DNA of 64,000 nt from Acipenser ruthenus. Taxonomy: Eukaryota. The position numbers were made by a program, and so were the translations under genes. Positions 9,660 to 61,740 of this stretch are shown one piece after another (within the stretch, counting starts at the first letter, position 1; each line of letters opens with the position of its first letter). Where the stretch lies: NCBI RefSeq assembly GCF_902713425.1, contig NC_081214.1:10880641-10944640 (forward strand), in the 5' to 3' direction. Below the pieces are notes generated by a model. The model saw nothing but the letters and a program-made list of their open reading frames with translations, ran no database searches and was not told where the DNA came from.

Positions 9660-11340
9660 TAAAAACAGCATAACCTACCATATTTGAATGGGTGCTTCCC
9701 TGGTTTCAGTCTGGGAAGGCAGAGAAGTCCGCGGATCCTGGTCGGACCACTGGACGTCCCTGCATATAAACATGCTGGAGCTGCAGGCGGTCTCCCTTGC
9801 TCTCCACCATTTCCTCCCAGTGCTATGAGGTACACATGTGTTGGTATGGACGGACAACGTAACAGTGATGGCATATGTCAACCACCAGGATGGCCTACGA
9901 TCCCCGAGGTTGCATCGCATGGCCTTCAGGCTTTTGATGTGGGCTCAGAGGAACTTGCTGTCCCTGCGAGTGACGCACATTCCCGGAGCGGTGAACTGGG
10001 CAGCGGACCTCCTCTTGAGGGAGGATCCCCTTTCATCAGAGTGGCGACTCCACCCTCAGGTAGTGGAGCGCATTTGGGAACGATTCGCAGGTCGATCTCT
10101 TTGCCTTGGTGGAGACGACACACTGCCCCCTGTGGTATTCCCTCCATCGCTTAGGCGGTCCACTCACGAATGGCCCAAAACGTTTTTGTATGCTTTCCCG
10201 CCAATACCGCTGCTCCCGGCCTTTCTCGAAAAAATCTGGTTAGAGGAGGCGTCAGTTCTCCTAATGGCCCCCAGTTGGCCAAGGATAATCTGGTTCTCGA
10301 CCCTCTGCGCATGGATCTCCTGAGTCAGACGAGAGGCACTGTTTGGCACCTGGAACCGGGCAGGTTCCGGCTATGGGTCTGGCCCATGAAAGGGACCGCT
10401 GGTTAGCCCTAGGGCTATTAGATGCGGTTGTGGGTACTTTGCAGAACGCTAGGGCAGACTCCACTAGGTCTTTGTACACCTACAAGTGGAGGTATTTTCA
10501 AGCTTGGTGTCATGACCCAATCTCTTGCCCTATGCCGGTTATCTTACAGTTTCTGCATGAACTGCTTGATGCTGGTAGGTCACCTTCCACTTTGAAGGTG
10601 TATTTAGCGGCTATTTCTGATTCGGTGTCTCCAGGTGCGCATTTCTTGGCTACCCGATTTCTTAAAGATACTCTGCGATTACGCCCTCCCAGGAGACTGT
10701 TCTCCCCGAATGGAGCCTTGATATTGTACTGGAGGTTTTCACAAAGGCCCCGTTTGAGCCCATATACTCTATAGAGTTGAAGCATCTGTCTATGAAGACA
10801 GCCTTCCTCGTGGCTATCACCTCCGCTAAGCGGGTCAGTGAGCTGCAGACGCTGTCTGTGCACAGCTCCTGCATGCGCATTTGGGAGGATGGCAGCAGGG
10901 TGTCTCTGCGCACCAACACTGCTTTCCTCTCTAAGGTGATCACAGCCTTCCACATTAATCAGTCTGTGGAACTGGAGTCCTTCCATCCACCCCTGTTAGC
11001 TTCTACGGAGGATGAGAGATTGAGATTGGTCCCTCATATGCTGCCGTTCCTTCTCCCTTGCAATGGCTCTAGTATACATTATCCCATACATAATGTCTTT
11101 GGTGGTCGTCTTTGAATTGAAAATTGAATTGAATTGAATGTTAGGTTACTTACCGTAACCCTGGTTTTAATCCCTCTGTGGACGGGACCGAGAGCGTCAT
11201 CCCAGGAAGGGGCCTATCGGCAACTCTGGTATAGAGAGCTCAGCAATTACCTACCCAATGGGCAGGCATATCCTATACATAATGTTGTTGGTGGTCGTCT
11301 CTTTTAGGGAACCAGGGTTACGGTAAGTAACCTAATGTTT
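9660..11340 (+). mobile_element. DIRS-like (tyrosine-recombinase) retrotransposon, 5'-truncated: RNase H, YR domain and terminal inverted-repeat (ICR-like) structure
   Basis: ORFs 9838-10323 (RNase H: TDNVTVMAYVNHQ...HIPGAVNWAADLL; then YAFPP...LLMAPSWP), 10343-10774 (YR core-binding: STRSLYTYKWRYFQAWC) and 10777-11115 (YR catalytic: ITSAKRVSELQ). Exact 23-bp inverted arms ggttacttaccgtaaccctggtt at 11143-11165 and aaccagggttacggtaagtaacc at 11311-11333, each preceded by a catacataatgt(c/t)t(t/g)ttggtggtcgtct direct repeat. Confidence 0.75.
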
Positions 11341-13930: not shown

Positions 13931-14027
13931 GTTGGTGGTCAGAAGTAGGATAGCGCCACCTGGAGGCTCAGAGCAGTAATTTTTTTTTTTTCTTGAATTT
14001 TGGGAGTTTTTTTTTTTTTTTTGGAAA

Positions 14028-14195
14028 ATGGGGAAGAGCAGACAGCGGCAAAGGCAGGAGAAGCAGCAGCCGAAGAAATGTAGGCTGCTGCAACAACAGC
14101 CACCCCAGCTGGAGGACCCAGCCAGTCTTTTCCCCTGGTGCTCCTGGTGCGGGAAGGAGGATCATCGGTGGAGGTCCTGTCCAGATGGGCTACCA
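14028..14195 (+). pseudogene. gag/nucleocapsid remnant with CCHC zinc knuckle (C-X2-C-X4-H-X4-C at 14139-14180)
   Basis: MGKSRQRQRQEKQQPKKCRLL...PWCSWCGKEDHRWRSCP; runs directly into the 36-bp repeat array. Confidence 0.6.
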
Positions 14196-15360
14196 GAGAC
14201 GAGCTGCCGTTCCCGCCTCCGCCAGCAGAGGGAGACGAGCTGCCGTTCCCGCCTCCGCCAGCAGAGGGAGACGAGCTGCCGTTCCCGCCTCCGCCAGCAG
14301 AGGGAGACGAGCTGCCGTTCCCGCCTCCGCCAGCAGAGGGAGACGAGCTGCCGTTCCCGCCTCCGCCAGCAGAGGGAGACGAGCTGCCGTTCCCGCCTCC
14401 GCCACTAGAGGGAGAGGGGCCGCCGTTCCCGCCTCCGCCAGCAGAGGGAGACGAGTTGCCGTTTCTGCCACTAGAGGGAGAGGGGCCGCCGTTCCCGCCT
14501 CCGCCACTAGAGGGAGAGGGGCCGCCGTTCCCGCCTCCGCCAGCAGAGGGAGACGAGCTGCCGTTCCCGCCTCCGCCAGCAGAGGGAGACGAGCTGCCGT
14601 TCCCGCCTCCGCCAGCAGAGGGAGACGAGCTGCCGTTCCCGCCTCCGCCAGCAGAGGGAGACGAGCTGCCGTTCCCGCCTCCGCCAGCAGAGGGAGACAA
14701 GCTGCCGTTCCCGCCTCCGCCAGCAGAGGGAGACGAGTTGCCGTTCCCGCCTCCACCAGCAGAGGGAGACGAGCCGCCGTTCCCGCCTCCGCCAGCAGAG
14801 GGAGACGAGCCGCCGTTCCCGCCTCCGCCAGCAGAGGGAGACGAGCCGCCGTTCCCGCCTCCGCCAGCAGAGGGAGCCGGGCTGCCGTTCCCGTCTCCGC
14901 CAGCAGAGGGAGCCGGGCCGCCGTTCCCGTCTCCGCCAGCAGAGGGAGCCGGGCCGCCGTTCCCGCCTCCGCCAGCAGATGGAGACGAGCCGCCGTTCCC
15001 GCCTCCGCCAGCAGAGGGAGACGAGCCGCCGTTCCCGCCTCCGCCAGCAGAGGGAGCCGGGCCGCCGTTCCCGCCTCCGCCAGCAGAGGGAGCCGGGCCG
15101 CGGTTCCCGCCTCCGCCAGCAGAGGGAGCCGGGCCGCGGTTCCCGCCTCCGCCAGCAGAGGGAGCCGGGCCGCCGTTCCCGTCTCCGCCAGCAGAGGGAG
15201 CCGGGCCGCCGTTCCCGTCTCCGCCAGCAGAGGGAGCCGGGCCGCCGTTCCCGTCTCCGCCAGCAGAGGGAGCCGGGCCGCCGTTCCCGTCTCCGCCACC
15301 AGAGGGAGCCGGGCCGCCGTTCCTGCCTCCGCCACCAGAGGGAGCCGGGCCGCCGTTCCC
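14195..15360 (+). repeat. 36-bp minisatellite (about 32 copies; unit about gagacgagctgccgttcccgcctccgccagcagagg) inside the LTR element
   Basis: Highly homogeneous tandem array. It is open in several frames (GDELPFPPPPAE / RRAAVPASASRG), so the 381-626-aa track ORFs across it are low-complexity artefacts. Confidence 0.95.
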
Positions 15361-15366
15361 GTCTCC

Positions 15367-15516
15367 GCCTCCCGAGGGTCCGCTGCTGCTGCCGTCGCCT
15401 CCCGAGGGTCCGCTGCTGCTGCCGTCGCCTCCCGAGGGTCCGCTGCTGCTGCCGTCGCCTCCCGAGGGTCCGCTGCTGCTGCCGTCGCCTCCCGAGGGTC
15501 CGCTGCTGCTGCCGTC
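15367..15516 (+). repeat. 30-bp minisatellite x5 (cctcccgagggtccgctgctgctgccgtcg)
   Basis: Direct reading; adjacent to the 36-bp array. Confidence 0.95.
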
Positions 15517-15817
15517 GCCTGGGGTTGCCAGGGATCCTGCTTCGCCTGGGGTCGCTACACTATGGCCGGAGCCCCACGGAGGGGAGTTGCTGACCATGAA
15601 GAGGGGGAGGGAGGTCAGGAGACCAGCTCCCCCAGCGGCACTGTCGCGGCAAGATAGTGTGTGGCCGGAGCCCCGGAAGAGGGAGCTGCTGGCCACGAAG
15701 AATTGGGTGGTGCCGGACGTCCCACCATGGCCACCCCCATGGACACTGTGCTTCCCCCTCTTCCGGGACTGAGACTGAGGGGGGAGGTGGCCATTTAGGC
15801 CATGTTGTGCTTGGCAC

Positions 15818-15829
15818 AAGGGGGGGATA
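15818..15829 (+). promoter_or_regulatory. Polypurine tract (aagggggggata) of the LTR element
   Basis: Purine run immediately upstream of the 3' LTR start TGTGACGG. Confidence 0.6.
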
Positions 15830-16274
15830 TGTGACGGGGTACTGCCCCGTCTTTATGATAATGGTTGGGACTGGCAGGGAGGGGGTTAAAATTCCTCCCT
15901 GCCAGGAAAACATGTGAGAATGTGGCTGGAGCCCTAATTGACTAATTAGCAATTATTGATTCATTGGGCTCCAGCCACAGGGGATAAAAGCCAGGGGAGA
16001 GGCCCTGGCTAGTAGGAGAGAGAGTAGGAGAAAGAGAGTTCCAGAAGAGGAGTGTTTTGTTTGTGCTGTGTCTTTGTAAGTTTTTGGTTCCAGTGAAGGC
16101 AACGCCCAGTCTGGAAACTTTATTTTGTAAGTTTTGTTTTGTGTTTGTATTTTGTGTTTGAAACCTTTTTGTTTGGCCCTCGTGCTGGTTTATTTTGTAT
16201 TTTTGTTTATTAAAACTTTATTTTTGAACTTTAAAACTGTCTCTGAGTCTCAAACCTCGGTCCATCCTGTCACA
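15830..16274 (+). repeat. 3' LTR (445 bp)
   Basis: Direct repeat of 13486-13930. Confidence 0.85.
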
Positions 16275-19539: not shown

Positions 19540-20160
19540 TGGAGCTTTGTGACGTCACGCTGTATACCTCGTAGAACTGGATTCTGTGTAGAATTGTGCA
19601 GAACTCTGGAAATCTGTGCTACAAGAACGCACCTACACTGCCGCGGATCCTAAGACTAAATATAGAAGGATAGGACAGTCAATCCCGTGATTCAGTTCGG
19701 TACTCAATTACAGGCGCCATTTGTGGAGCCCACTCAGTACTGAATACATTGCGGCGATGCTGTGGCAGCGCCAGGATATACCAGTATTTTTTTTAATAAC
19801 AATACAAAATATCGTTAATATAAAGTGACTGACTGTTATTTATGCGAATTAACGCTTGATTATGTCAAGAAACATTTTGCCAGTGCGAGCGCGAATACGT
19901 TAAAAATCATTGCGAGTGCGCTGTGTTTAAGTGCTCTACGGGCTCCAGAAATGCTGCACTGTTTACTAACTCTGCCCACTTGTGACGTCATTCTACTATC
20001 CTTCTTTATATAGTCCTATCTTGGATCCAGGAAGTACTATAGAACTGTTGCTGAAGATCGAGTTCTTCCAATGCGCACTGTATGTTGTTGTATATTGTTG
20101 TGGTTTGTTCCTTTCTTTACGAACACCAAGAGTGCCAGGTTGTAAGCATTTGCAATTCCG
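19540..20160 (+). promoter_or_regulatory. Candidate promoter / first-exon region: two perfect CRE palindromes TGACGTCA (19548-19555, 19983-19990), TATA-like tttatatag at about 20005, local CpG enrichment, donor ccag|gtaagg at about 20159
   Basis: Motifs read directly; it lies about 5 kb upstream of the first recognisable PARP4-like exon, in the same orientation. Function not demonstrated. Confidence 0.2.
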
Positions 20161-21924
20161 GTAAGGACCTAACTTGTCTTTAAATCGTACTTTATTGTCA
20201 TCAGATCCTATCGTTGAGATTGTACAATAAACACGAATTCCTGTCGAGTTATATTTGCAGTGATATTTGATAGAAAGCAAAGATTAGCGAAATAATAAGT
20301 ACATTTGTATAAGTACATGTGTATTGTGAGATCTGCTTTATTAAAAAAAACAATAATAATAAATGTGGGTCTCTCTTAATGACCCTATCAGTGGTGAACC
20401 AATAGCACAGCCAGCACTCACATATCCGACCCAATCGCTTTTTTTAACTTGAGTGACGTTTAAAAGAGTGTGATGCATATCTGATTATTTCATTTTGGCC
20501 TTCTCAAACCCTTGTCTACTTCTCAGAAACCATTTTTAAACAAAGAAGAAAAGCACACACAGTCTGACAAAGCACTCTCTTGCTCTCAACTGCCTGAAAC
20601 CTTCTCTCAAGCTCTTTTGAATCTCTAGTCTAACTCTGTAGGGTGATAATGCTGCATAACAGAAAATAATAAAAATAAATGGCTGGCAGTTTATTAACTT
20701 ATTCAATATAACATAATACAAGAAAGAATGGCAACCTGAAACAAAATATTATAAAAATAATTGTTCGTAATTAATAATGATTTTTTTATACTCTTTTGTT
20801 TCAGGTTACCATTCTTGTATGACTTTTCTTTTAATAATTACTAATTACTAAGTCAAATGTAATACAAGAAATAGTAATTTGAAAGATTTTGTTTATTATT
20901 AAAAAAAAAAAGTAATTTCTTAACCTGCCTCGCTGATTAAACTAAAATGAGAAACCGAGTCAACAATAACAGATACCTACAACTGAAAGTCCCAGTAAAA
21001 CAGTACAATAACTTTGGGTAGGTGTGGCAAAGTGGTTTGTTGTGCACAGGTGTAGAGGTGATGCAGTGCTCAGGAATGATTTGAAACAACACAGTTCACG
21101 GTTAAACAGCTCTTATTTGCTGGTAAATAATAATAACTGGCTCTACACACCAAGCTGTATCGCTCAGTTAAACCACGGGATTTAATCCAGAAATATGTAG
21201 TAATAATAACACACAACACAGACATGATCACTTATCCAAACAGTGAGTGCTCTTTGTGCAGATGGTGCTATACAACAGTTGTGAAACACAGTGGTGCAGT
21301 GTAGTCCGGGTTCAATGCTGGCCTTTAGCGACAGCCCCTGGCTGACACGAAACACTCACAGTTATATCTGTAATCATTTTACTGGTCTGTCCTTGGCCAT
21401 AACAAAGGAACAGATCGCTTGGCCACATCCCATGATCTACCTTCAGTCACGCCCCCTTTGGTAGCGAGTGCAGTTACGTCTCCTCCAATCCATGACTGAC
21501 ACATCGCCTACCGCAGTAAGGCGCTGACTTCTAGTATTGTGGCTTCTCCCCCTTTCTGGATGGCCGACTTCCGACTGACCCTGGAATGAACTGTCAAACC
21601 ATCCAGTCCGGGGCACACTGTTCCTGTTATACAGCACCCTCACAGGTCGGGAGTGAGATTGTTGACTCGGATTCATTCACTCTCTGTCACAGTAGGTCAC
21701 TTATAAATACATATTTATATCAACATCCATGAACCTTCGGTTTCAAGGGTGATTAATCTGACATGGACATATCATTTAATGTCTGCCGCTTTTGTCTTGC
21801 TGAATGAAACGACATTAATTAGGTTATTGATAAGTAAAGAAAATAAAAATAGTTTGTATTCATGAACTTACAGTATTTCAACACTTGCTCACCTTCATTC
21901 TCTGACAAGTATTTATAACGAAGA

Positions 21925-24806
21925 TCTGATACTGCGCTACGCTGCCTGTGTGTAGAGTTCTGATACTGCGCTACCCTGCCTTTGTGAAGAGTTCTGATAC
22001 TGTGCTACGCTGCCTGTGTGAAGAGTTTTGATACTGCGCTGCCTGTGTGTAGAGTTCTGATACTGCGCTACCCTGCCTGTGTGAAGAGTTCTGATACTGC
22101 GCTACCCTGCCTGTATGAAGAGTTCTGATACTGCGCTACGCTGCCTGTGTGTAGAGTTCTGATACTGCGCTACGCTGCCTGTGTGAAGAGTTCTGATACT
22201 GCGCTACCCTGCCTGTATGAAGAGTTCTGATACTGCGCTACCCTGCCTGTATGAAGAGTTCTGATACTGCGCTACGCTGCCTGTGTGTAGAGTTCTGATA
22301 CTGCGCTACGCTGCCTGTGTGAAGAGTTCTGATACTGCGCTACCCTGCCTGTATGAAGAGTTCTAATACTGTGCTACGCTGCCTGTGTGAAGAGTTCTGA
22401 TACTGCGCTGCCTGTGTGAAGAGTTCTGATACTGCGCTACGCTGCCTGTGTGTAGAGTTCTGATACTGCGCAACGCTGCCTGTGTGAAGAGTTCTGATAC
22501 TGCGCTACCCTGCCTGTATGAAGAGTTCTGATACTGCGCTACGCTGCCTGTGTGTAGAGTTCTGATACTACGCTGCCTGTGTGTAGAGTTCTGATACTGC
22601 GCTACCCTGCCTTTGTGAAGAGTTCTGATACTGTGCTACGCTGCCTGTGTGAAGAGTTTTGATACTGCGCTGCCTGTGTGTAGAGTTCTGATACTGCGCT
22701 ACGCTGCCTGTGTGAAGAGTTCTGATACTGCGCTACCCTGCCTGTATGAAGAGTTCTAATACTGCGCTACGCTGCCTGTGTGAAGAGTTCTGATACTGCG
22801 CTGCCTGTGTGAAGAGTTCTGATACTGCGCTACCCTGCCTTTGTGAAGAGTTCTGATACTGTGCTACGCTGCCTGTGTGAAGAGTTTTGATACTGCGCTG
22901 CCTGTGTGTAGAGTTCTGATACTGCGCTACGCTGCCTGTGTGAAGAGTTCTGATACTGCGCTACCCTGCCTGTATGAAGAGTTCTGATACTGCGCTACGC
23001 TGCCTGTGTGAAGAGTTCTGATACTGCGCTACGCTGCCTGTGTGTAGAGTTCTGATACTACGCTGCCTGTGTGTAGAGTTCTGATACTGCGCTACCCTGC
23101 CTTTGTGTAGAGTTCTGATACTGTGCTACGCTGCCTGTGTGAAGAGTTTTGATACTGCGCTGCCTGTGTGTAGAGTTCTGATACTGCGCTACGCTGCCTG
23201 TGTGAAGAGTTCTGATACTGCGCTACCCTGCCTGTATGAAGAGTTCTAATACTGCGCTACGCTGCCTGTGTGAAGAGTTCTGATACTGCGCTGCCTGTGT
23301 GAAGAGTTCTGATACTGCGCTACCCTGCCTGTATGAAGAGTTCTGATACTGCGCTACGCTGCCTGTGTGTAGAGTTCTGATACTACGCTGCCTGTGTGTA
23401 GAGTTCTGATACTGCGCTACCCTGCCTTTGTGAAGAGTTCTGATACTGTGCTACGCTGCCTGTGTGAAGAGTTTTGATACTGCGCTGCCTGTGTGTAGAG
23501 TTCTGATACTGCGCTACGCTGCCTGTGTGAAGAGTTCTGATACTGCGCTACCCTGCCTGTATGAAGAGTTCTAATACTGCGCTACGCTGCCTGTGTGAAG
23601 AGTTCTGATACTGCGCTGCCTGTGTGAAGAGTTCTGATACTGCGCTACCCTGCCTTTGTGAAGAGTTCTGATACTGTGCTACGCTGCCTGTGTGAAGAGT
23701 TTTGATACTGCGCTGCCTGTGTGTAGAGTTCTGATACTGCGCTACGCTGCCTGTGTGAAGAGTTCTGATACTGCGCTACCCTGCCTGTATGAAGAGTTCT
23801 AATACTGCGCTACGCTGCCTGTGTGAAGAGTTCTGATACTGCGCTGCCTGTGTGAAGAGTTCTGATACTGCGCTACCCTGCCTGTATGAAGAGTTCTGAT
23901 ACTGCGCTACGCTGCCTGTGTGTAGAGTTCTGATACTGCGCTACCCTGCCTGTATGAAGAGTTCTGATACTGCGCTACACTGCCTGTGTGGAGTTCTGAT
24001 ACTGTGCTATGCTGCCTGTGTGAAGAGTTCTGATACTGCGCTGCCTGTGTGAAGAGTTCTGATACTGCGCTACGCTGCCTGTGTGTAGAGTTCTGATACT
24101 GCGCAACGCTGCCTGTGTGAAGAGTTCTGATACTGCGCTACCCTGCCTGTATGAAGAGTTCTGATACTGCGCTACGCTGCCTGTGTGAAGAGTTCTGATA
24201 CTGCGCTACACTGCCTGTGTGAAGAGTTCTGATACTGCGCTACGCTGCCTGTGTGTAGAGTTCTGATACTGCGCAACGCTGCCTGTGTGTAGAGTTCTGA
24301 TACTGCACAACGCTGCCTGTGTGAAGAGTTCTGAAACTGCGCTACGCTGCCTGTGTGAAGAGTTCTAATACTGCGCTACGCTGCCTGTGTGAAGAGTTCT
24401 GATACTGCGCTACGCTGCCTGTGTGGAGTTCTGATACTGCGCTGCCTTTGTGAAGAGTTCTGATACTGCGCTACGCTGCCTGTGTGTAGAGTTCTGATAC
24501 TGCGCTACGCTGCCTGTGTGAAGAGTTCTAATACTGCGCTACGCTGCCTGTGTGGAGTTCTGATACTGCGCTACGCTGCCTGTATGAAGAGTTCTGATCC
24601 TGCGCTGCCTTTGTGAAGAGTTCTGATACTGCGCTACGCTGCCTGTGTGGAGTTCTGATACTGCGCTACGCTGCCTGTGTGAAGAGTTCTGATACTGCAC
24701 TACGCTGCCTGTATGAAGAGTTCTGATACTGCGCTGCCTGTATGAAGAGTTCTGATACTGTGCTGCCTGTATGAAGAGTTCTGATACTGCGCTACACTGC
24801 CTGTAT
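21925..24806. repeat. 34-bp minisatellite/satellite array, about 2.9 kb, about 85 units (ctgatactgcgctacgctgcctgtgtg[t/a]agagtt) with 30-bp deleted-unit variants
   Basis: Direct reading; recurring multi-unit blocks suggest higher-order periodicity. Confidence 0.95.
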
Positions 24807-25584
24807 GGTTTTGTGACACCGACGCCATTTTGTACGCATTATGGGAGCTTTAACAGGAGGACGGGGCTCGAGGTTAATCCAAAGTGCTGGAATGCGGAAG
24901 TAACTTTTTTATGATGAGTGACCATAATAAAGACATGAAGTTTTATAATATAATAATCAATTGAAATTGTGCAGTTTATTAATCGTTGGAAGTCAGTTTC
25001 GGTATTTAATTTAAGAATCGGTAATTAACCGTATTTTTGATTAATCGCTCATCACTAGCGCCCGTAAAATTTGGAGTACAAACATGCAGAATTACAAACG
25101 TCGATTCCATTTACACTCTACATATCGTAATGCTTTTTATATTTTTGCCAACATACAATTGCCATTGTTATTGCAAATGTATGGATTTTAGTACTGATTA
25201 ATTCTATATTAGAAATATTAATTAATATTTGGAGATATGAATTTGGTTTGCAATACAATCCACAGAGAGCTTGTTTGTTTTGATGCAGTATTTACAGGTA
25301 GGGTACTCTACTTTGATGCAATGTTTACAGGGAGGGTACCCTATTAGTGGTTGGTTGTGTGGGAAAGGAGGAAACACTGCCTAATTTAGGAAAGCCACAA
25401 GAACAACCTGTGCTTTAGGCCAATGATTACCAGCTGTATATTTTCATGTATAAAGAAAGGAATAATCCCATTAAAAGGAAGAAATGGTGAACATACTTGA
25501 AAATAAATGCTAGTCAGTTAACCCCACAATTTCTTTTGCAGGTGATGTAGAAGTGGAAAGACTTGATATTTGCCCCCACTTCAG

Positions 25585-25700
25585 AGGAAGCTGTAAAGGC
25601 CTATGAGCTTTTTATAAAGGATCTTCAAGATAAGGATTTCCAGCAGCAGACAAAATTGTCAGCAGAACTGAATCTTTTAGCTTCTGAGAAAGTTAAGAAG
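25585..25700 (+). CDS. parp4: PARP4-like exon (regulatory/helical region; ...EEAVKAYELFIKDLQDKDFQQQTKLSAELNLLASEKVKK)
   Basis: Acceptor cacttcag|, donor aag|gtctgc; resembles vertebrate PARP4 DASEYFENYIEELKKQGF...QLASEQLQ (alignment from memory). Confidence 0.5.
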
Positions 25701-27775: not shown

Positions 27776-27916
27776 CAACTACTTCTTGAAGAAGCTCTGA
27801 GCAGCAGCAGCATCTCCCAGGAAGTCGCTGTTTTTGTGGAGCTGATCTGGACTGAAGCCCTTGGTTGCTTTGATGATGTGCTTGCCAGTCCTGTCAATAG
27901 CATCAGTCCCAATGAT
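27776..27916 (+). CDS. parp4: PARP4-like exon (QLLLEEALSSSSISQEVAVFVELIWTEALGCFDDVLASPVNSISPND); 5' boundary unresolved
   Basis: Matches PARP4 ALLLEEVMNSSTLSQEVSDLVEMIWAEALGHLEHMLLKPVNRISLND. Donor gat|gtaagt at 27916/17. No canonical in-frame AG acceptor was found upstream (in-frame TAA at 27752-27754). Confidence 0.5.
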
Positions 27917-28334
27917 GTAAGTTTACTCTATATACTATACTTCCATAGTTCTGTGAGTAATGACAATTCTAAACATAACTTGGCTTTAATAGTAAGATCT
28001 ATCTGTAAAAAGCCTGAATGGCAAAGTGTAAAATTCATTCAGAATTTATTTTGAAATAATGTGAAACGAATACGTTAGCATGTCTCTACAGTTATACTAT
28101 CTGTTATGGTATCCATCTACATATCAGCACATGCTTTTGTTTTGTGACTCTCCCTAATGTTCAGTTCAGTTGCTATGCTCTCTGTTTATGTGCCTATTAA
28201 TTTTGTCCATTGATTGTTTTCCTCTTGGTATGGCAATAGAAGATGTATGGGAATGTTTATGAGTTTGACGCTTTGAGGTGGATAGTGTTTCAAAGCAGGG
28301 CTTTCTACACACAGTGTGTCATACCCCTCCTCAG

Positions 28335-28533
28335 GTGAGCAGGGCCGAAGGCATTCTCTTGCAGGCACGGAAAGCCATGGATGAAGGAGTTGATCAGAAC
28401 GGGTTAAGAGGCATCATGTTCGAGTTCTACACAATCCTGCAACATAAACACGGGATGGACTTTACCTTTACATTACATTACTTTACTTTACATTACCAAG
28501 AAGATGATCTCTACAAAACATGACCTCTGCCAG
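28335..28533 (+). CDS. parp4: PARP4-like exon (VSRAEGILLQARKAMDEGVDQNGLRGIMFEFYTILQHKHG...KKMISTKHDLCQ) with internal +1 frame disruption
   Basis: Acceptor ctcag|, donor gccag|gtacat. The 5' part matches VSKAEGILLLVKAALKNGETAEQLQKMMTEFYRLIPHKG. The 3' end matches ...KKADLCQ only in the +1 frame. The exon is 199 nt and carries about 22 extra nt of a tttac/attac pentamer run at about 28460-28495. Confidence 0.55.
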
Positions 28534-28642
28534 GTACATTTTTCTCCTGATTGGCCGGACAAAAAGCTGTTATAAAGACTGAATCCAATTACCAGACCTC
28601 TTTTTAAGAGTAGATACAATGAAACAATCTTGAAAATGTAAC

Positions 28643-29057
28643 ATTGATCAGACTCCTTCTCTTCTTGTATGTGCTGAGCAGTATTGATCAGACTTCTTCT
28701 CTTCTTGTATGTGCTGAGCAGTATTGATCAGACTCATCCTCTTCTTGTATGTGCTTAGCAGTATTGATCAGACTCATCCTCTTGTATGTGCTGAGCGGTA
28801 TTGATCAGACTCCTTCTCTTCTTGTATGTGCTGAGCAGTATTGATCAGACTCCTTCTCTTCTTGTATGTACTGAGCAGTATTGATCAGACTCCTTCTCTT
28901 CTTGTATGTGCTGAGCAGTATTGATCAGACTCATCCTCTTCTTGTATCTGCTGAGCAGTATTGATCAGACTCCTTCTCTTCTTGTATGTGCTGAGCAGTA
29001 TTGATCAGACTCCTTCTCTTCTTGTATGTGCTGAGCAGTATTGATCAGACTCCTTCT
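28643..29057. repeat. 40-bp minisatellite (cagtattgatcagactccttctcttcttgtatgtgctgag), 5' part; split by the CR1 insertion
   Basis: About 10 tandem units; the same array resumes at 32091. Confidence 0.95.
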
Positions 29058-29402
29058 GGAAATACAAAATCAAAATGCATGGCTGAAATCGTGGTGCACA
29101 CAGGAAGGCTTCACCTTTCTTGAACATTGGAGCACTTTCTACAACAAGGACTATCTATACAGGTGGGACGGACTGCACTTAAACAGAAAGGGAACCAATC
29201 TACTCGGAGAAAGGATCCTTCATGCGGTCCAGAAGCATTTAAACTAGAAAGGAAGGGGGGAGAAAACAAAAAAACAGAAGGGAGACCACATCAAAACAAG
29301 GGCAACAATAAGACCACTATTAAATGTATCTATCTTAATGCTAGAAGTCTCAGAAACAAAATGTGAGAACTTGAAGCTACTGCACTAACAAGTAACTACG
29401 AT

Positions 29403-29789
29403 GTGATAGGTGTTACAGAAACTTGGTTGTCTGAGAGTGATGGAGACGAATATAATATTAGTGGGTACAAACTATATAGGAAAGACAGGCAGGACAGAAG
29501 AGGCGGAGGGGTAGCGCTATACATAAGAAATAGTCTTGAAGACCAGGTGTTAAATCTGGACAAAGAAAACAATGCAGAATCAATATGGGTCAGAAAAATG
29601 GACACAAATTCAAAGGGCATAATAATAGGAGCATGTTATAGACCGCCAAATTCAGACACCGAGCAAAATAATCTGTTATACAATGACATTCGAAATACGT
29701 GTAGAAAAGGAGAAGCCATACTAATGGGGGATTTCAACCTCCCCCGTATAAAATGGGAAAACCCGATGGGGGGCACGACTGCTTCCTAA
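29403..29789 (+). pseudogene. CR1 ORF2 apurinic-endonuclease domain (frameshifted relative to RT)
   Basis: IGVTETWLSESDGDEYNISGYKLYRKDRQDRRGGGVALYIRNSLE...MGDFNLP. Confidence 0.8.
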
Positions 29790-30450
29790 CACAATTTGTC
29801 AAGGCACCGAGTAGAGGGGAGGCATGCCTTGATTTAGTCTTTTCAAATAATGAAGACAGAATAACTAAAACAGAGGTCAGAGAGCCATTGGCAAACTCAG
29901 ACCACAACATGGTCTAATTTGAAATATTTTTAAAAACCCCAAAAGTAATGACTAAAGCTAAGGTTTACAATTTTAGAAAAGCAAACTATGAAGGTATGAA
30001 ATGGAGACTAACAGAAGTAGATTGGAGTAAAATAGAGAAAACATCCACAGAAAAAGGATGGCTGTTTTTTAAAAATGTAGTACTAGAGGCACAAAACAAT
30101 TACATCCCAAAAGTAGACAAATCTAAATCTAAAACAAAATGGCCAAAATGGTTTAATAGATCAATTAAAAAAATATTCAGCATAAAAAGGCACTTTACAG
30201 AGCATTTAAAAGGGACCAAAAACAAAGTACACAGAAAGAGTACTTGGAACTGCAAACACAAGTCAAAAAGGAAGTTAGAAAGGCCAAGAGAGAGAGATAG
30301 AAATCAATATTGCTAAGGGGGCTAAAACCAATTCGAAAATATTTTTCCAATATTATAACAGCAAGAGAACATTCAAAGAGGAGGTTAAATGTCTAAGAGA
30401 CACAAATGGCAAAATCATAGATGAAGAAAAAAAAATAGCAAATATATTAA

Positions 30451-31842
30451 ATGATTACTTTTCACAGGTTTTTACAAAGGAGGACACGGACAACATGCCC
30501 GACATGTCGACATGTCGGTCTAGGAGCTCTTAAAATAAACAAATCCCCTGGGCCAGATGAGATCCTCCCAATAGTACTCAAAGAAATGAAAGAAGTTATT
30601 TACAAACCGCTAACCAAGATCATGCAACAGTCTCTTGACACAGGGGTTGTACCGACAGACTGGAAAATAGCAAACGTAATTCCGATCCACAAAAAGGGAG
30701 ACAAAACCGAACCAGGTAACTACAGACCAATAAGCCTGACTTCTATTATATGTAAACTTATGGAAACTATAATAAGATCCAAAATGGAAAATTACCTGTA
30801 TGGTAACAATATCCTGGGAGACAGCCAGCATGGTTTTAGGAAAGGGAGATCGTGTCTAACTAACCTACTGGACTTTTTTGAGGATGCAACATTGAAAATG
30901 GATAACTGCAAAGCATACAACATGGTTTATTTAGATTTCCAGAAAGCTTTTGACAAAGTCCCGCACAAAAGATTAATTCTCAAACTGAACGCAGTAGGGA
31001 TTCAAGGAAATGCATGCACATGGATTAGGGAGTGGTTAACAGGTAGAAAACAGAAAGTACTGATTAGAGGAGAAACCTCAAAATGGAGTGAGGTAACCAG
31101 TGGTGTACCACAGGGATCAGTATTAGGTCCTCTGCTATTCCTAATCTACATTAATGATTTAGATTCTGGTATAGTAAGCAAACTCGTTAAATTTGCAGAC
31201 GACACAAAAATAGGAGGAGTGGCAAACACTGCTGAAGCAGCAAAGGTCATTCAAAATGATCTAGACAGCATTCAGAATTGGGCAGACACATGGCAAATTA
31301 AATTTAATAGAGAAAAGTGTAAAGTATTGCATGCGGGCAATAAAAATGTGCATTATAAATATCATATGGGAGATAGTGAAATTGAAGAAGGGAACCATGA
31401 AAAAGGCCTAGGAGTTTATGTTGACTCAGAAATGTCTTCATCTAGACAATGTGGGGAAGCTATAGAAAAGGCTAACAAGATGCTTGGATATATTGTGAGA
31501 AGTGATGAATTTAAATCAACAGAAGTAATGTTAAAACTCTACAATGCATTAGTAAGACCTCACCTAGAATATTGTGTTCAGTTCTGGTCACCTCGTTACA
31601 AAAAGGATATTGCTGCTCTAGAAAGAAAGAGAGTGCAAAGAAGAGCAACCAGAATTATCCCGGGTTTAAAAGGCATGTCGTATGCAGACAGGCTAAAAGA
31701 ATTGAGTCTATTCAGTCTTGAACAAAGAAGACTACGCGGTGATCTGATTCAAACATTCAAAATCCTAAACGGTATAGACAATATCAACCCAGGGGACTTC
31801 TTTGACCTGAAAAAAGAAACAAGGACCAGGGGTCACAAATAG
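30451..31842 (+). pseudogene. CR1 ORF2 reverse transcriptase domain, 463-aa open segment
   Basis: RT motifs as above; the upstream in-frame region is interrupted. Confidence 0.85.
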
Positions 31843-32090
31843 AGATTATATAAAGGGGCATTCAGAACAGAAAATAGGAGGCACTTTTTTACACATAGAA
31901 TTGTGAGGGTCTGGAACCAACTCCCCAGTAATGTTGTTGAAGCTGACATCCTGGGATCCTTCAAGAAGCTGCTTGATGAGATTCTGAGATCAATAAGCTA
32001 CTAACAACCAAACGAGCAAGATGGGCTAAATGGCCTCCTCTCGTTTGTAAACTGTCTTATGTTCTTATGTTCTTATGTTCTTATGTTCTT

Positions 32091-32386
32091 TCTCTTCTTG
32101 TATGTGCTGAGCAGTATTGATCAGACTCCTTCTTGTATGTGATGAGCAGTATTGATCAGACTCCTTCTCTTGTATGTGCTGAGCAGTATTGATCAGACTC
32201 CTTCTCTTCTTGTATGTGCTGAGCAGTATTGATCAGACTCCTCCTCTTCTTGTATGTGCTGAGCAGTATTGATCAGACTCATCCTCTTCTTGTATGTGCT
32301 GAGCAGTATTGATCAGACTCATCCTTTTCTTGTATGTGCTGAGCAGTATTGATCAGACTCCTTCTCTTCTTGTATGTGCTGAGCAG
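32091..32386. repeat. 40-bp minisatellite, 3' part (continuation after the CR1 insertion)
   Basis: Same unit as 28643-29057. Confidence 0.95.
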
Positions 32387-32447
32387 TTATTTTACTGTGC
32401 ATTGCATTCTATGATCTTGTCTATCTTTGCCCTGTGCTTTCCTGTAG

Positions 32448-32608
32448 TTAATTCGAGACATTGTCAATGCAAGTGAAGCCACTCTATGGAGCCTCACACC
32501 GTCTTCGCTTGCTAAATACCAGGCCCTGAGGTGCAGTGTGGAGCATGTAGCCCCAAACATTGAAGAGTTTTCTACCATTAAGGTGCTTCTAATGCATAGG
32601 AATGAAAG
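32448..32608 (+). CDS. parp4: PARP4-like exon (LIRDIVNASEATLWSLTPSSLAKYQALRCSVEHVAPNIEEFSTIKVLLMHRNE)
   Basis: Acceptor cctgtag|, donor gaaag|gtaaag; matches PARP4 LIRDMVNVCETNLSKPNPPSLAKYRALRCKIEHVEQNTEEFLRVRKEVLQNHHSK; ends in phase 2. Confidence 0.7.
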
Positions 32609-33500: not shown

Positions 33501-34139
33501 TAATTAACTTCAATAAATATATAACATTTAAATAAATAAACAAAATTAATTCAAAAGTTGTGCATACTGATGCGCTGAGGAGGCCAAATCTAGACTGATC
33601 CTCAGAGCCAGCATTGCATGATATAATAAAAATATAAGTTTATATAAAGTAGTGTTAATTAGAATTAATACAGATTCAAAGATAGAAGTAAAAATGATGT
33701 CACAATGTATAGAACACCATTACATCATGTAAGAATAAATCATGGATTTGAATGTAAACAATAACAAGTAGTTGTCATGCCGTCAAAAACCTATAAATAC
33801 CTCCAATGTTTTGATTCAAACACAGGCTCCCTTGAGAAAGATATGTACAACATATTGAAACGTTGGGCAGCTGGCTCTTTGAGCTAAAATATATATATAT
33901 ATAATTCCATGTTACCATGGAAACAGAATATAATGAACAAATATATATATAAACATGCAATCTTCATGTACATACATAGGTATGGGCAAAAAATATATTC
34001 CTACATCATGACTAGGACCCTACCTAATTTACTGTCCATTTTTTGTAAATTTCACAGGCATAATATTTTAAAAAATCTTGGATTTCACGGTTTGAGCTAC
34101 TTAAATCTCAAATTTCACGGTGGTGTTAAAACGGCAAAA

Positions 34140-35268: not shown

Positions 35269-35406
35269 TCTGACTTCAGTGAGGATCCATCAGATATTCC
35301 GCATTGGCAGAGTGAATGAGATGTTAGACTTCCAGAGCCAGCTTGGCAATGTCCAGCCACTGTTCCACGCCACCTCTGCTAGCAGCTTCGTTGGTATTCT
35401 TTCCAG
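35269..35406 (+). CDS. parp4: PARP4-like exon (SLTSVRIHQIFRIGRVNEMLDFQSQLGNVQPLFHATSASSFVGILS)
   Basis: Acceptor ccggtcag|, donor ttccag|gtgagt; matches SPVDVLQIFRVGRVNETTEFLSKLGNVRPLLHGSPVQNIVGILCR; phase consistent with its neighbours. Confidence 0.7.
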
Positions 35407-39129: not shown

Positions 39130-39228
39130 GGGACTTCTTTTGCCAAAAGTTGCGATTGAACAACACGGCATTGATAGGACGGATATTGGTAACCTTGGAT
39201 GTGGCATTTACTTCAGCAATGCATTGAG
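39130..39228 (+). CDS. parp4: PARP4-like exon, PARP catalytic domain (GLLLPKVAIEQHGIDRTDIGNLGCGIYFSNAL)
   Basis: Acceptor ttacag|, donor ttgag|gtctgg; matches GLLLPKVVEDRGVQRTDVGNLGSGIYFSDSL. Confidence 0.8.
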
Positions 39229-39322: not shown

Positions 39323-39506
39323 CACAATTCTCAAGTATTCAAAGCCTAGTGAAAGTGATGGCACGCGGCTCCTGGTGGTTTGTGACATCGCTCTCGGTGA
39401 GTGCAAGCACCTGCACAAGAAAGATTTCACCTTGGCATCTGCGCCAGCCGGGTACAGCAGTGTGCTCGGAGTGCGGCAGACTGCAGACGTTGCTTCGGAA
39501 TTCCAG
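39323..39506 (+). CDS. parp4: PARP4-like exon, PARP catalytic domain (TILKYSKPSESDGTRLLVVCDIALGECKHLHKKDFTLASAPAGYSSVLGVRQTADVASEFQ)
   Basis: Acceptor cttacag|, donor ttccag|gtactg; matches IKYSHPGETDGTRLLLICDVALGKCMDLHEKDFSLTEAPPGYDSVHGVSQTASVTTDFE. Confidence 0.85.
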
Positions 39507-41529: not shown

Positions 41530-41677
41530 GATGATGAGTATGTCGTATACAACCCCAGCCAGGTTCAAATAAAGTATGTTGTCCAGTTCTGCGTGGGAGA
41601 AGACCAGGTGAATAGTTTTCAGCCCACTGTTAATGTTACCAATGAAGAAACCCCAGCAGGTCTGTCAGACCCCCCAG
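41530..41677 (+). CDS. parp4: PARP4-like exon, end of catalytic domain (DDEYVVYNPSQVQIKYVVQFCVGEDQVNSFQPTVNVTNEETPAGLSDPP)
   Basis: Acceptor ctttag|, donor ccccag|gtgagt; matches DDEFVVYKTNQVKMKYIIKF; catalytic Glu retained. Confidence 0.8.
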
Positions 41678-42826: not shown

Positions 42827-43127
42827 AGTCTCCATTTAAAAAATAATAAAAATAAAACAAAACTAACAATGGAGAGTAAGAAAAAGAAAGAGGACAGCTG
42901 GTGTGGCTTTGGGTTTGCAAACTTATACAACTCCCCTAATGGGGCTACTTAGTAACAGCAGTTGCTATCACAGTTTAAATGATGACCCTGGAGAAAAATT
43001 AATACAATATAGAACTGATAACAAGAGTGCCGTGGTGTGTACTTGACAAGATCCCCACAGTTCTAGAATTCCAGGCTGTCCTCTTCCATGTGATTTGAAG
43101 CGGTTGCTGTTTTTTGTTTCTTTGCAG

Positions 43128-43254
43128 CAGTGACTGATGCCGATTCCAATGAGGAATACACAAACCCTTTGGACTCTGTAACAGAGGGCCTCCAGGACAG
43201 CTCTGGGAATAAGATCCCCCTGTGAAGGGCCGAATGGTAGATCTTTTAGCACAG
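43128..43254 (+). CDS. parp4: PARP4-like exon (AVTDADSNEEYTNPLDSVTEGLQDSSGNKIPL / VKGRMVDLLAQ) with internal frame disruption
   Basis: Acceptor tttgcag|, donor cacag|gtgagg. The first part matches ...KAGLQDASGNLVPL in the expected phase. The last part matches (I)KGRIIDTVAQ only after a -1 shift. The expected EDVHI codons are replaced by 2 nt (cccctg-tg-aagggc), giving an in-frame TGA. Confidence 0.55.
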
Positions 43255-43867
43255 GTGAGGATGGGAAAGTGAGACTGCAATTGAATTAATTTCTGGTTAG
43301 CACATTACCAAAAGCACATTGTGTAGAGTTCAGTGTAGAGCAATCAGGGCTTAAAGGAAAAAGCTATAACGTTAGGTGAACTGAAATGATTAGTGGGGAA
43401 TTCACTGAAGTGTTTAAAATTAAGAGGAGTTGACAAAGTGAACCCTAATCAATGCTGTAAGCACAGCACAGGGGTCAGGACCACAGGACCAGACCCAACT
43501 TGACAATATTTTGTGATTTAACCAGCTACTATGAACTGAACAAGCATCGGTGGGCTGACTGGCCTCATCTGGTTCATAGTTCTTGTGTAAATGGAGACAT
43601 TTTGAACCAGAGGGAATGCATAATACAGGGTAACTAAAATAGACTTAAGACACTATCAGCTGGTTTCACAGACCTTGACTAGCACCAGTGCTGGACTACC
43701 TTACCTAAAATAGTGGGTCTGTGAAACCAGCCGTTTATTTAATATGAACAGTACTTCTGGTAAAATAAGTGATGTCACAAAATTCAAATAGAGTTCAAAT
43801 AGAGTCAAATAGAGTTGAGTGATCCACTGTGTTGTATAATCTGCTTTTCTTTCTCTTTATTTTAGAG

Positions 43868-43951
43868 GCCAAGTATGTCTTTCCTTTGGATGAAACAGCA
43901 GCTGTATGTGGGTTTGAAGCTTTTATTAATGGAAAACATGTAGTGGGTGAG
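43868..43951 (+). CDS. parp4: PARP4-like exon, VIT domain start (AKYVFPLDETAAVCGFEAFINGKHVVGE)
   Basis: Acceptor ttttagag|, donor gag|gtaagt; near-identical to PARP4/ITIH VIT motif AKYIFPLDDKAAVCGFEAFINGKHIVGE. Confidence 0.85.
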
Positions 43952-44278: not shown

Positions 44279-44365
44279 GTGAAGGAAGAGGAGAAAGCAA
44301 GACAAGACCACAGGCAGGCGATTCAGGAGGGACACAGGGCCTACCTCATGGATCAAGAAGCACCA
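44279..44365 (+). CDS. parp4: PARP4-like exon, VIT (VKEEEKARQDHRQAIQEGHRAYLMDQEAP)
   Basis: Acceptor tctttcag|, donor cca|gtaagt; matches IKEKEEAQQEYLEAVTQGHGAYLMSQDAP. Confidence 0.85.
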
Positions 44366-44587: not shown

Positions 44588-44752
44588 GATGTTTTTACCA
44601 TTAGTGTTGGAAACCTTCCTCCAAGTGCCACTGTCCTGATTAAAATCACCTACGTGACTGAGCTTGCTACTGAATTTGGATCTATAGTCTTCCGGCTGCC
44701 TGGCAGTGTGGCACCATGGCAACAGAGCAAAGCATTGAATGAGAGGACACAG
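44588..44752 (+). CDS. parp4: PARP4-like exon, VIT (DVFTISVGNLPPSATVLIKITYVTELATEFGSIVFRLPGSVAPWQQSKALNERTQ)
   Basis: Acceptor ttctag|, donor cacag|gtctga; matches DVFTVSVGNLPPKAKVLIKITYITEL...ATVAPWQQDKALNENLQ. Confidence 0.85.
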
Positions 44753-45485: not shown

Positions 45486-45529
45486 GACACAGTAGAGAAG
45501 ATCTGTGTGAATGAAATGGAGGAAACTGG
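45486..45529 (+). CDS. parp4: PARP4-like short exon (DTVEKICVNEMEET-)
   Basis: Acceptor tttcag|, donor actgg|gtgcgt; matches DTVEKICIKEIGTK; phase continues correctly into the next exon. Confidence 0.6.
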
Positions 45530-45853: not shown

Positions 45854-45935
45854 TGGATTTGCCTTGGATATGTCGGTTGAAATGCCACATGAGATCACAC
45901 GCATTTGGTCTGGAACCCACAAAATCAAAGTCAAG
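45854..45935 (+). CDS. parp4: PARP4-like exon (GFALDMSVEMPHEITRIWSGTHKIKVK)
   Basis: Acceptor gaagtag|, donor caag|gtattc; matches SFSLTMSIEMPYVIEFIFSDTHELKQK. Confidence 0.7.
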
Positions 45936-46802: not shown

Positions 46803-46940
46803 AAAACTCAATGTAAAGCAGTTGTAATCACGGAAGAGAACAGCTCTTTAGGACCGGGTGGATTCAGCCTTACTATTGACTTGTCTGAAGTGTACCTGCC
46901 CAGGATGTGGGTTGAGAAGCACCCGGACAAAGACAGCCAG
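46803..46940 (+). CDS. parp4: PARP4-like exon (KTQCKAVVITEENSSLGPGGFSLTIDLSEVYLPRMWVEKHPDKDSQ)
   Basis: Acceptor tatttcag|, donor gccag|gtgagc; matches RTDCKAVISTMEGSSLDSSGFSLHIGLSAAYLPRMWVEKHPEKESE. Confidence 0.8.
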
Positions 46941-53514: not shown

Positions 53515-53698
53515 GCTTGCATGTTGGTGTTTTGCCCAGAGTTTGCTCCTAGTAGTTTTCCAGAGGACTGTGAGGTTGTGATTTTCTTGGACAGTTCCAA
53601 TTCCATGAGGGGGGCAGTGCTGCAGGAAGCCAGAAAGATTGCTCTGCGGCTGCTGAATTCACTGCATTGCAAGCTCAATGTTGTCATATTTGGTACAG
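53515..53698 (+). CDS. parp4: PARP4-like exon, vWA domain with MIDAS motif (ACMLVFCPEFAPSSFPEDCEVVIFLDSSNSMRGAVLQEARKIALRLLNSLHCKLNVVIFGT)
   Basis: Acceptor ttttcag|, donor acag|gtaggt; matches ACMLVFQPDL...SEVIICLDCSSSMEGVTFLQAKQIALHALSLVGEKQKVNIIQFGT. Confidence 0.85.
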
Positions 53699-54090: not shown

Positions 54091-54155
54091 ACTGTAAGGA
54101 ATTGTTCCCCTGCCCACAAGATTATGTCTTGGAAGCTGCAAAGCAGTTTATAATG
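54091..54155 (+). CDS. parp4: PARP4-like exon ((G)DCKELFPCPQDYVLEAAKQFIM)
   Basis: Acceptor gtgcag|, donor aatg|gtaagt; matches GYKELFSYPKHITSNTMAAEFIMSA. Confidence 0.7.
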
Positions 54156-54255: not shown

Positions 54256-54443
54256 TTTTCGCCACTATTAATGGGCAACACTGATCTTTGGAGACCTTTA
54301 CGCAGTTTAAGCTTGCTGGCTCCTTCTAAAGGTGTCCGTAACATCCTCTTAATTTCGGACGGACACATTCAGAGTGAAGGTTTGATCCTGCGGCTATTGA
54401 AAGAGAACGCTCATCATACCAGGATTTTCACTTGTGGAGTTGG
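54256..54443 (+). CDS. parp4: PARP4-like exon, vWA (FSPLLMGNTDLWRPLRSLSLLAPSKGVRNILLISDGHIQSEGLILRLLKENAHHTRIFTCGVG)
   Basis: Acceptor tttaaag|, donor gttgg|gtgagt; matches TPTMGNTDFWKTLRYLSLLYPARGSRNILLVSDGHLQDESLTLQLVKRSRPHTRLFACGIG. Confidence 0.85.
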
Positions 54444-54597: not shown

Positions 54598-54697
54598 CCA
54601 TACAGCAAATCGACACATGTTGAGGTCCTTGGCACAGTCTGGAGGTGGAGCTTATGAGTTTTTTGACATGAAAACAAAACACAACTGGAGAGAAAAG
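54598..54697 (+). CDS. parp4: PARP4-like exon (HTANRHMLRSLAQSGGGAYEFFDMKTKHNWREK), probable GC donor
   Basis: Acceptor aatttag|. Only ending at aag|GCAAGG (54697/98) gives phase 0 into the next exon; the GT donors at 54703 and 54727 give the wrong phase. Matches STANRHVLRILSQCGAGVFEYFNAKSKHSWRKQ. Confidence 0.6.
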
Positions 54698-55261: not shown

Positions 55262-55432
55262 ATTGCCTTGCAGGTGATACAGATGGTCTTGCCGGACTGC
55301 AGCTCTGTCTCTGTGAAGTGGCAGCAGTTCAACCCCAACGCCTCCCAGCCTGTCCAGGCCCTGGCACAGCTGCACTCTGTGTTTAGTGACAATCAGCTTC
55401 TTGTTTACGGATTTGTGCCTCACTGTACACAG
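55262..55432 (+). CDS. parp4: PARP4-like exon (IALQVIQMVLPDCSSVSVKWQQFNPNASQPVQALAQLHSVFSDNQLLVYGFVPHCTQ)
   Basis: Acceptor tttgtcag|, donor acacag|gtaagc; matches IEDQMTRLCSPSCHSVSVKWQQLNPDVPEALQAPAQVPSLFLNDRLLVYGFIPHCTQ. Confidence 0.8.
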
Positions 55433-60870: not shown

Positions 60871-61740
60871 CAGCTTGGTAGCCCTGTCAGCGATCGCAGT
60901 TCAAGACACGAGAGGGGGGCGTGTCTCAATTACAGAGTGTATTTTGGTGTTTTACACCTTTTTAAAATAAGGTGTTATTTGAAAAACAGAACCAATTATG
61001 AATTTCTGTTGCTTAACAAGCGGTAATGCGAATGTATCTTCAAAAAAGCGCAAAGCCTAAAATTCCATTGCGTCTGCACTGACTACATTAAAATAACTAA
61101 ATGACTAAATACATTTTGCAACTTTTATCTGGAGTCGCAAAGGTGTTTTACGATCTGTTTTTCCCTCTGCCCCTTTTGAAAGTCAGGCTGATTGTGATTT
61201 CTATATAAACCTTAAATGTACTGTTTGAAAGAAGTTCTCCCACTGGGCCACTCTGTCTGGTGTGGTCAGCAATCAGGAGATTCAAACAATGGTTTCAACC
61301 ACCGAGCTCCAGAAGACTAAAGGCACAGTAATGGATTTATCTAGAATCTAATGGCACTTGTTAGAGAGTTCCTTAGGGTAGCACCCAGCAGTAGAAAACA
61401 TACCTGCGAGTACATATGTCACATACTTACATACTCACATTTTTATATTCAGTTTATATAGTTGATTCCATTATAATGACATTTGGCAAGGATTTATTTA
61501 GCACCAGTAATACAGTGAATCAGGTTGTATCTCTGCCCCTCTGGAAGTATATACATCAGTATGTCTCGCTTCATCTGTACAACTGATACTGACAACTTAT
61601 ACTTTTCTTCTTGTTGCACCAGAAGAATTGAAGAAAAATTCTTTAGAAAAAGCAATTGTACATAGAAATAAGAGTATACCTAATCCGGTTACCAATTCTT
61701 TAAGATTTTCTTGAGGATAAATACTTTAAATGAAACACTT

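Follow-up and report, generated by a model that had tools for sequence, protein, structure and literature searches.

Several described systems bear on the locus analysed here, which lies in a window of 64,000 nt from the sterlet Acipenser ruthenus (contig NC_081214.1, positions 10,880,641 to 10,944,640 of the forward strand; all coordinates below count from the first letter of this window). One is vertebrate PARP4 itself (vault poly(ADP-ribose) polymerase), represented by human Q9UKK3 and paddlefish XP_041092540.1. Exon 8 of PARP4 has 58 codons in paddlefish and also 58 in human, and the window matches the gene exon by exon. The sterlet copy differs from these proteins in that it lacks the BRCT exons, in that several of its exons are broken, and in that aa 845-1004 of XP_034759163.2, its annotated C-terminus, do not resemble PARP4.

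The second system is the pseudogenised duplicate left by whole-genome duplication. The sterlet has an anciently tetraploid genome, and of its duplicate pairs about 70% were retained and about 30% lost one member (Du et al. 2020, PMC7269910). Like such a duplicate, the sterlet copy still has its introns and is collinear in position with the PARP4-like locus of paddlefish, and deletions, a nonsense codon, the loss of a splice site and frameshifts have built up in it. It differs in that the partner copy is not in evidence here, and a copy without a working partner is conceivable.

The third is the frameshift caused by slippage in a coding microsatellite. As in that system, the sterlet exon has gained whole 5-nt units from a two-unit ancestral stretch, the added length is not a multiple of three, and a stop is exposed. 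Unlike a simple slippage product, the sterlet tract is imperfect, with mixed CTTTA/CATTA units, a 15-nt period and one 6-nt unit. Neither the pseudogene nor the frameshift through a coding short tandem repeat is out of the ordinary in kind. We hold with high confidence that the locus is a genuine, degenerating copy of PARP4, that is, a pseudogene.

Identity of the locus and comparison material

We used a human PARP4 sequence, serving as a probe only, in a tblastn search of the window; the matches form a collinear run of PARP4 exons that extends on the + strand from roughly 25.5 to 61.3 kb. Human residues ~207-1124 were matched exon by exon, covering the helical region and the catalytic, VIT and vWA domains. 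A translation of the window matched the Pfam PARP family PF00644 (E = 1.8e-31), and the precomputed Pfam domains of XP_034759163.2 (a 1004-aa 'PARP4-like' protein of A. ruthenus) include PF08487 (VIT) together with PF13768 and PF00092 (vWA). The domain order of PARP4, an ADP-ribosyltransferase catalytic domain followed by VIT and vWA, is thus present at the locus. The earlier note on this DNA had called the exon PARP4-like from the letters alone, and the collinear tblastn matches together with the PF00644 match uphold that identity.

We found that XP_034759163.2 is encoded in this window by 22 segments at 100% amino-acid identity, and its first 844 residues could be rebuilt from the window, again with 100% identity. 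This sterlet protein is the closest match over the downstream exons, and paddlefish XP_041092540.1 is the closest over exon 8. The N-terminal BRCT domain of PARP4 is absent: exons 1-5 of XP_041092540.1, which encode it (Pfam E = 6e-9), have no counterpart in the window. The C-terminal vault (MVP)-interacting region of PARP4 falls beyond the window. We obtained a match to PARP_reg PF02877 below threshold (E = 4.1e-4; 20.9 bits, cut-off 26.8). It spans aa 49-130 of the peptide translated from the repaired exons 6-9, exon 8 included, and faintly suggests the label 'helical domain' for that exon.

The paddlefish reference locus (CM030290.1, here L001) is collinear with the window. Its PARP4-like model is labelled 'partial', as a 500-N assembly gap (L001 22821-23320) interrupts exon 9 after LIRDIVNASEA, and past the gap lies an unrelated FYVE_2 gene on the minus strand. 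Because of this gap in exon 9 and the unrelated gene that follows it, the comparison with paddlefish stops short of the catalytic, VIT and vWA exons. For the downstream part we used an independent, older sterlet assembly (GCA_004119895.1), whose contig L002 begins at window position 33891. Its main collinear blocks (window 33891 to ~59994) are 99.7-99.9% identical to the window.

The pentamer insertion in exon 8

The features of exon 8 are as follows.

28335 to 28533, + strand: PARP4 exon 8 (helical/regulatory region), 199 nt against 174 expected
28465 to 28489, + strand: 25-nt insertion CCTTTACATTACATTACTTTACTTT, five extra WTTAC units, a single gap against the paddlefish exon
28521 to 28523, + strand: premature TGA exposed by the +1 frameshift, from the frame-1 translation

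Exon 8 is flanked by an AG acceptor at 28333-28334 and a GT donor at 28534-28535; it starts GTG AGC and ends TGC CAG. It had been described as 199 nt long where about 174 was expected, and the paddlefish exon 8 is indeed 174 nt. Pairwise DNA alignment of the two gave one clean 25-nt gap and bears the claim out. The extra sequence had been put at about 22 nt of a pentamer run. Its repeat nature stands; its size does not, as the alignment to paddlefish places exactly 25 nt at 28465-28489, which fits 199 against 174.

Since 25 leaves a remainder of 1 on division by three, the frame of exon 8 shifts by +1. Frame 1 reads VSRAEGILLQARKAMDEGVDQNGLRGIMFEFYTILQHKHGMDFTFTLHYFTLHYQEDDLYKT and then stops at the TGA, 32 nt beyond the end of the insertion, so the frame entering from the previous exon does run into a stop ahead of the sole GT donor, as had been stated. 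The +1 frame ends ITKKMISTKHDLCQ and joins LIRDIVN of exon 9 at 32448; the claim that the end of the exon and the next exon are correct only in this frame therefore holds. When we deleted the 25 nt in silico, the peptide HKHGMDFNITKKMISTKHDLCQ (MDFNITKKMISTKHDLCQ) was restored, which equals that of paddlefish save for one M/I difference there.

We considered whether splicing could rescue the frame. The last internal GT of exon 8 lies at 28424 and the next is the donor at 28534. An internal GT-AG intron was ruled out on this ground, and no alternative donor can rescue the frame because GT is absent between 28424 and 28534.

The repeat tract spans ~28461-28496. Tandem Repeats Finder reported two tracts here, one of period 5 at 28468-28496 (TTACA, 5.8 copies) and one of period 15 at 28466-28496. 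The ancestral sequence GAC-TTTAAC-ATTAC-C, in which the pentamer pair TTTAAC-ATTAC codes for D-F-N-I-T, corresponds in the window to GAC-TTTAC-CTTTAC-ATTAC-ATTAC-TTTAC-TTTAC-ATTAC-C, so that two units have become seven. The insertion is thus an integer number of repeat units (25 nt = 5 x 5) and extends a repeat that was already present in the ancestral coding sequence. The footprint of a dispersed repeat or transposon was rejected as a source, as the 25-mer occurs once in the window (0 expected in shuffles) and is composed of the flanking motif.

Replication slippage would be the likely mechanism. A near-identical ancestral pentamer pair would have grown to seven WTTAC units, adding 25 nt, moving the frame by +1 and exposing the TGA. 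That the units are mixed and show a higher-order period of 15 nt suggests several slippage or duplication steps. The tract neatly illustrates, on a small scale, how two adjacent similar 5-mers in coding sequence can give rise to a new pentamer repeat.

A different explanation is that the five extra units arose artificially, when a low-complexity run was assembled or polished, and that the true exon 8 is 174 nt. The insertion does sit in a short tandem repeat, and exon 8 otherwise looks constrained (dN/dS 0.18). It is known from one sterlet assembly, plus a RefSeq model that had to avoid the same tract; the contig of the older assembly starts past exon 8, and exact look-ups of the two likeliest ORF products across the exon gave no match. 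Typical consensus errors are miscalls of one unit or of a homopolymer. By contrast, the sterlet exon carries 25 nt of imperfect, mixed CTTTA/CATTA units in several variants, which is unlike a simple length miscall. Against an artefact also stands the RefSeq model, which skips the repeat tract, and the copy carries at least five other independent lesions, that of the VIT exon being reproduced exactly in GCA_004119895.1. Because of these other lesions, one of them confirmed by an independent assembly, an intact gene with a single artefact is not the simpler reading. None of the observations calls for an assembly or consensus error, and we regard one as highly improbable.

Other lesions, the annotated protein and the open exons

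We found that this PARP4 copy carries at least six independent disabling lesions, the exon 8 insertion being one. The others are listed here.

20297 to 20301, + strand: junction of a ~7.1 kb deletion of the upstream region and exons 1-4 (start codon, BRCT), from the paddlefish alignment
20437 to 20517, + strand: 81-nt segment in place of ~1.6 kb that includes exon 5, from the paddlefish alignment
25542 to 25700, + strand: exon 6 with a nonsense codon, TAG at 25548-25550 where paddlefish has AAG
27777 to 27778, + strand: 3' splice site of intron 6 lost, AA in place of the paddlefish AG
43128 to 43254, + strand: first VIT-domain exon with a frameshifting deletion at ~43220-43225, reading GNKIPL and then a stop, TGA 43223-43225

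In the alignment, L001 6541-6795 corresponds to window 20023-20296 and L001 13941-14077 to window 20302-20436. Paddlefish L001 6796-13940, which holds exons 1-4 (L001 10001-13931), is replaced by 5 nt, with a 3' breakpoint next to the very end of exon 4. Similarly, L001 14078-15722 (exon 5 at ~15112-15228) has no counterpart, and collinearity resumes from L001 15723 at window 20518. A tblastn search with paddlefish aa 1-199 against the whole window gave no match. Judged from these alignments, exons 1-5 are deleted rather than diverged.

The nonsense codon gives exon 6 the translation VM-stop-KWKDLIF against VMKMWKDLIF in paddlefish (DNA alignment), and at the boundary of intron 6 and exon 7 paddlefish GGCAG/CTGCTT corresponds to GGCAA/CTACTT in the window. 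In the first VIT exon, VKGRMVDLLAQ continues in a different frame after GNKIPL. Orthologues (n=9) read PLQAVHVKCKLMDLLSQVIIFQTYTNxSxVPIEAKY at this exon. The conserved QAVH and the subsequent VIIFQTYTNxSxVPI segment are missing from the sterlet copy, a loss of ~30 conserved residues (a 28-residue gap against the nine orthologues). We searched 43255-43865, ahead of the EAKYVFPL exon, in all frames for a remnant of the VIIFQTYTN segment and found none. The first VIT exon, compared as window 43127-43257, is identical in GCA_004119895.1; exon 8 and the 5' deletions fall outside its contig, which starts at window 33891.

The upstream region and exons 1-5 are lost, exon 6 contains a TAG, the acceptor before exon 7 is dead, and the VIT domain has a frameshift and lacks a segment; no full-length PARP4 is therefore possible. 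The earlier note had offered pseudogenisation by a microsatellite-like insertion as one of its readings. The pseudogene and the frameshifting repeat insertion are borne out; the insertion as single cause is not, given at least six independent lesions. Since the copy is already disabled elsewhere, the repeat expansion is probably a consequence rather than a cause of lost constraint, and the repeat may well have grown after constraint was lost.

Much of the remaining gene is open, as the following exons indicate.

27779 to 27916, + strand: exon 7, frame intact, one Ser codon fewer than in paddlefish
32448 to 32608, + strand: exon 9 (LIRDIVNASEATLWSL...), intact
35284-35406, 39130-39228, 39323-39506 and 41530-41677, + strand: ADP-ribosyltransferase catalytic exons, open frames with GT-AG junctions
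43866-43951, 44279-44365, 44588-44752, 45486-45529, 45854-45935 and 46803-46940, + strand: first six of the remaining VIT/vWA exons, open with canonical junctions
53515-53698, 54091-54155, 54256-54443, 54598-54697, 55262-55432 and 61235-61332, + strand: last six of the remaining VIT/vWA exons, open with canonical junctions

RefSeq lists the locus as protein-coding with no pseudogene flag. Its model starts at an ATG at 27770, in the former intron 6, and exact reconstruction from the window revealed two further features.

28455 to 28491, + strand: 37 nt omitted from the RefSeq CDS to restore the frame
43752 to 43759, + strand: 8-nt micro-exon (part of 'TS') that bridges the VIT frameshift, the sole all-canonical solution giving aa 342-400

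Across exon 8 the annotated protein reads ILQHKHG/ITKKMISTK. The 37-nt gap permits no GT-AG placement; the choices are AT-AC, TG-CA and GG-AT. The 5' end of the interval, ATGGAC, fits neither of the spliceosomal consensus sequences (that of U12 introns is ATATCC). Judged by general knowledge of splice consensus and minimum intron length, the 37-nt interval is not a credible vertebrate intron. At the VIT exon the model uses a donor at 43222 before the micro-exon. Compared with orthologues, XP_034759163.2 lacks 4 conserved residues at the 37-nt skip and 28 at the VIT frameshift. All other junctions of the model are canonical. The acceptor of its last exon lies upstream and adds FSHW; the acceptor of exon 61235-61332 was possibly moved upstream, accounting for these residues. 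The final 160 residues of the model (EELKESYEEKLENTF...) do not resemble PARP4 and fall beyond the window; possibly the gene is also disrupted in its 3' part, or fused there to another gene.

The points against a pseudogene are that most downstream exons are open with canonical splice sites and that RefSeq lists a protein-coding gene. These raise the alternative that a shorter functional protein is still made, either the annotated 1004-aa product by excision of the 37 nt or a product started at ATG 28504. This ATG (28504-28533, MISTKHDLCQ/LIRDIVN) is in frame with exon 9 and could give a catalytic-domain-only product. It is the only obvious route to such a residual product. In favour of a shorter protein, the catalytic exons are open and spliceable, the predicted catalytic domain keeps the H, Y and E catalytic positions, the downstream VIT/vWA exons are open, and RefSeq annotates a coding gene. 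Against it, the AT-AC, TG-CA or GG-AT ends do not make a credible intron and ATGGAC mismatches the U12 consensus; all frames entering the VIT exon reach the TGA at 43223-43225 unless the 8-nt micro-exon is used; the VIT domain lacks ~30 residues that are conserved universally; the copy has lost its promoter and exons 1-5; and the coding differences between assemblies are mostly nonsynonymous. We therefore consider a functional shorter protein very unlikely and retain the reading of the locus as a decaying gene copy.

The main value of these results lies in annotation, as the frame of XP_034759163.2 is open only by way of a 37-nt skip without GT-AG ends and an 8-nt micro-exon. The locus deserves a pseudogene flag, and XP_034759163.2 is unsuitable for PARP-family phylogenies, selection scans and counts of retained duplicates. 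That the locus exists was already known, as RefSeq carries it as a coding gene. In the literature searched we found no paper linking PARP4 with sturgeon, and parp4 is not mentioned in the supplements of two sturgeon genome papers.

Selective constraint, duplicate status and neighbouring sequence

Against paddlefish, dN/dS was 1.23 for exon 6, 0.14 for exon 7 and 0.18 for exon 8, and 0.31 over all 504 nt (dS 0.15). Taken together, these values indicate that the copy was constrained for most of the time since the split from paddlefish and that its inactivation is comparatively recent. Given the low values of exons 7 and 8, either the copy must have been inactivated late compared with that split, or it may still yield a shorter product.

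Between the two sterlet assemblies we counted 9 coding differences in 2092 nt (0.43%), 6 of them nonsynonymous and 3 synonymous; these are small counts. The exons are no less variable than the introns in this comparison (main collinear blocks 99.7-99.9% identity). The differences fit a neutral-like pattern, as expected without constraint, with the numbers being small.

The copy is probably a redundant duplicate left by the sturgeon whole-genome duplication. Since about 30% of sterlet duplicate pairs lost one member (PMC7269910), decay of such a duplicate is the simplest context. It would be an example of single-gene decay in a genome whose duplicate loss was described mainly as segmental.

A protein search with the catalytic/VIT/vWA query returned two sterlet proteins, XP_034759163.2 and P0016 (contig L002), both of which are the window locus; the search has imperfect recall. 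With the full paddlefish N-terminal protein as query, only proteins of distant species came back. One query missed XP_034759163.2 despite exact shared peptides, and no PARP4 protein match exceeded 1029 aa; full-length PARP4 proteins may be missing from the protein database. Because of this length limit and the imperfect recall, the absence of a second sterlet copy among the matches carries no weight.

It is also conceivable that this is the only PARP4 locus in the sterlet. The vault-associated PARP would then have been lost, perhaps in sturgeons generally, or a catalytic fragment would be made only from ATG 28504. We consider this unlikely. If it were true, and no intact partner existed, the sterlet would be a vertebrate in which PARP4 has been knocked out naturally.

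The window is rich in repeats. A 40-bp minisatellite at 28643-29057 and 32090-32387 fills much of intron 8, nearly to the exon 9 acceptor, and is common to paddlefish (L001 22485-22820). The sterlet minisatellite is split by a ~3 kb non-LTR retrotransposon at 29058-32089; this element contains a fragment of an endonuclease at 29367-29786 and, at 30451-31839, an open reverse-transcriptase ORF of 463 codons. The intron upstream of exon 6 contains ~88 copies (2.9 kb) of a 34-nt satellite at 21925-24804, which is found in paddlefish as well (L001 17256-18182, ~82% identity). Upstream of the truncated PARP4, GC-rich tandem arrays occupy 14196-15520, a 36-nt unit repeated 33 times followed by a 30-nt unit repeated 5 times; GC content reaches 69% in 14001-16000. 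A 25-nt satellite of ~90 copies (61748-63996) starts ~400 nt past the last PARP4 exon in the window.

Several long overlapping open frames on the + strand at 9663-11112 (e.g. 9829-10320 and 10289-10771) resemble a mobile element in decay; they had no Pfam match at E <= 0.001. CASTOR1 is a cytosolic arginine sensor for mTORC1. On the minus strand at 2102-2464 an open frame matches Castor1_N (E = 2.3e-14) and probably belongs, as an exon, to a CASTOR-like gene nearby.
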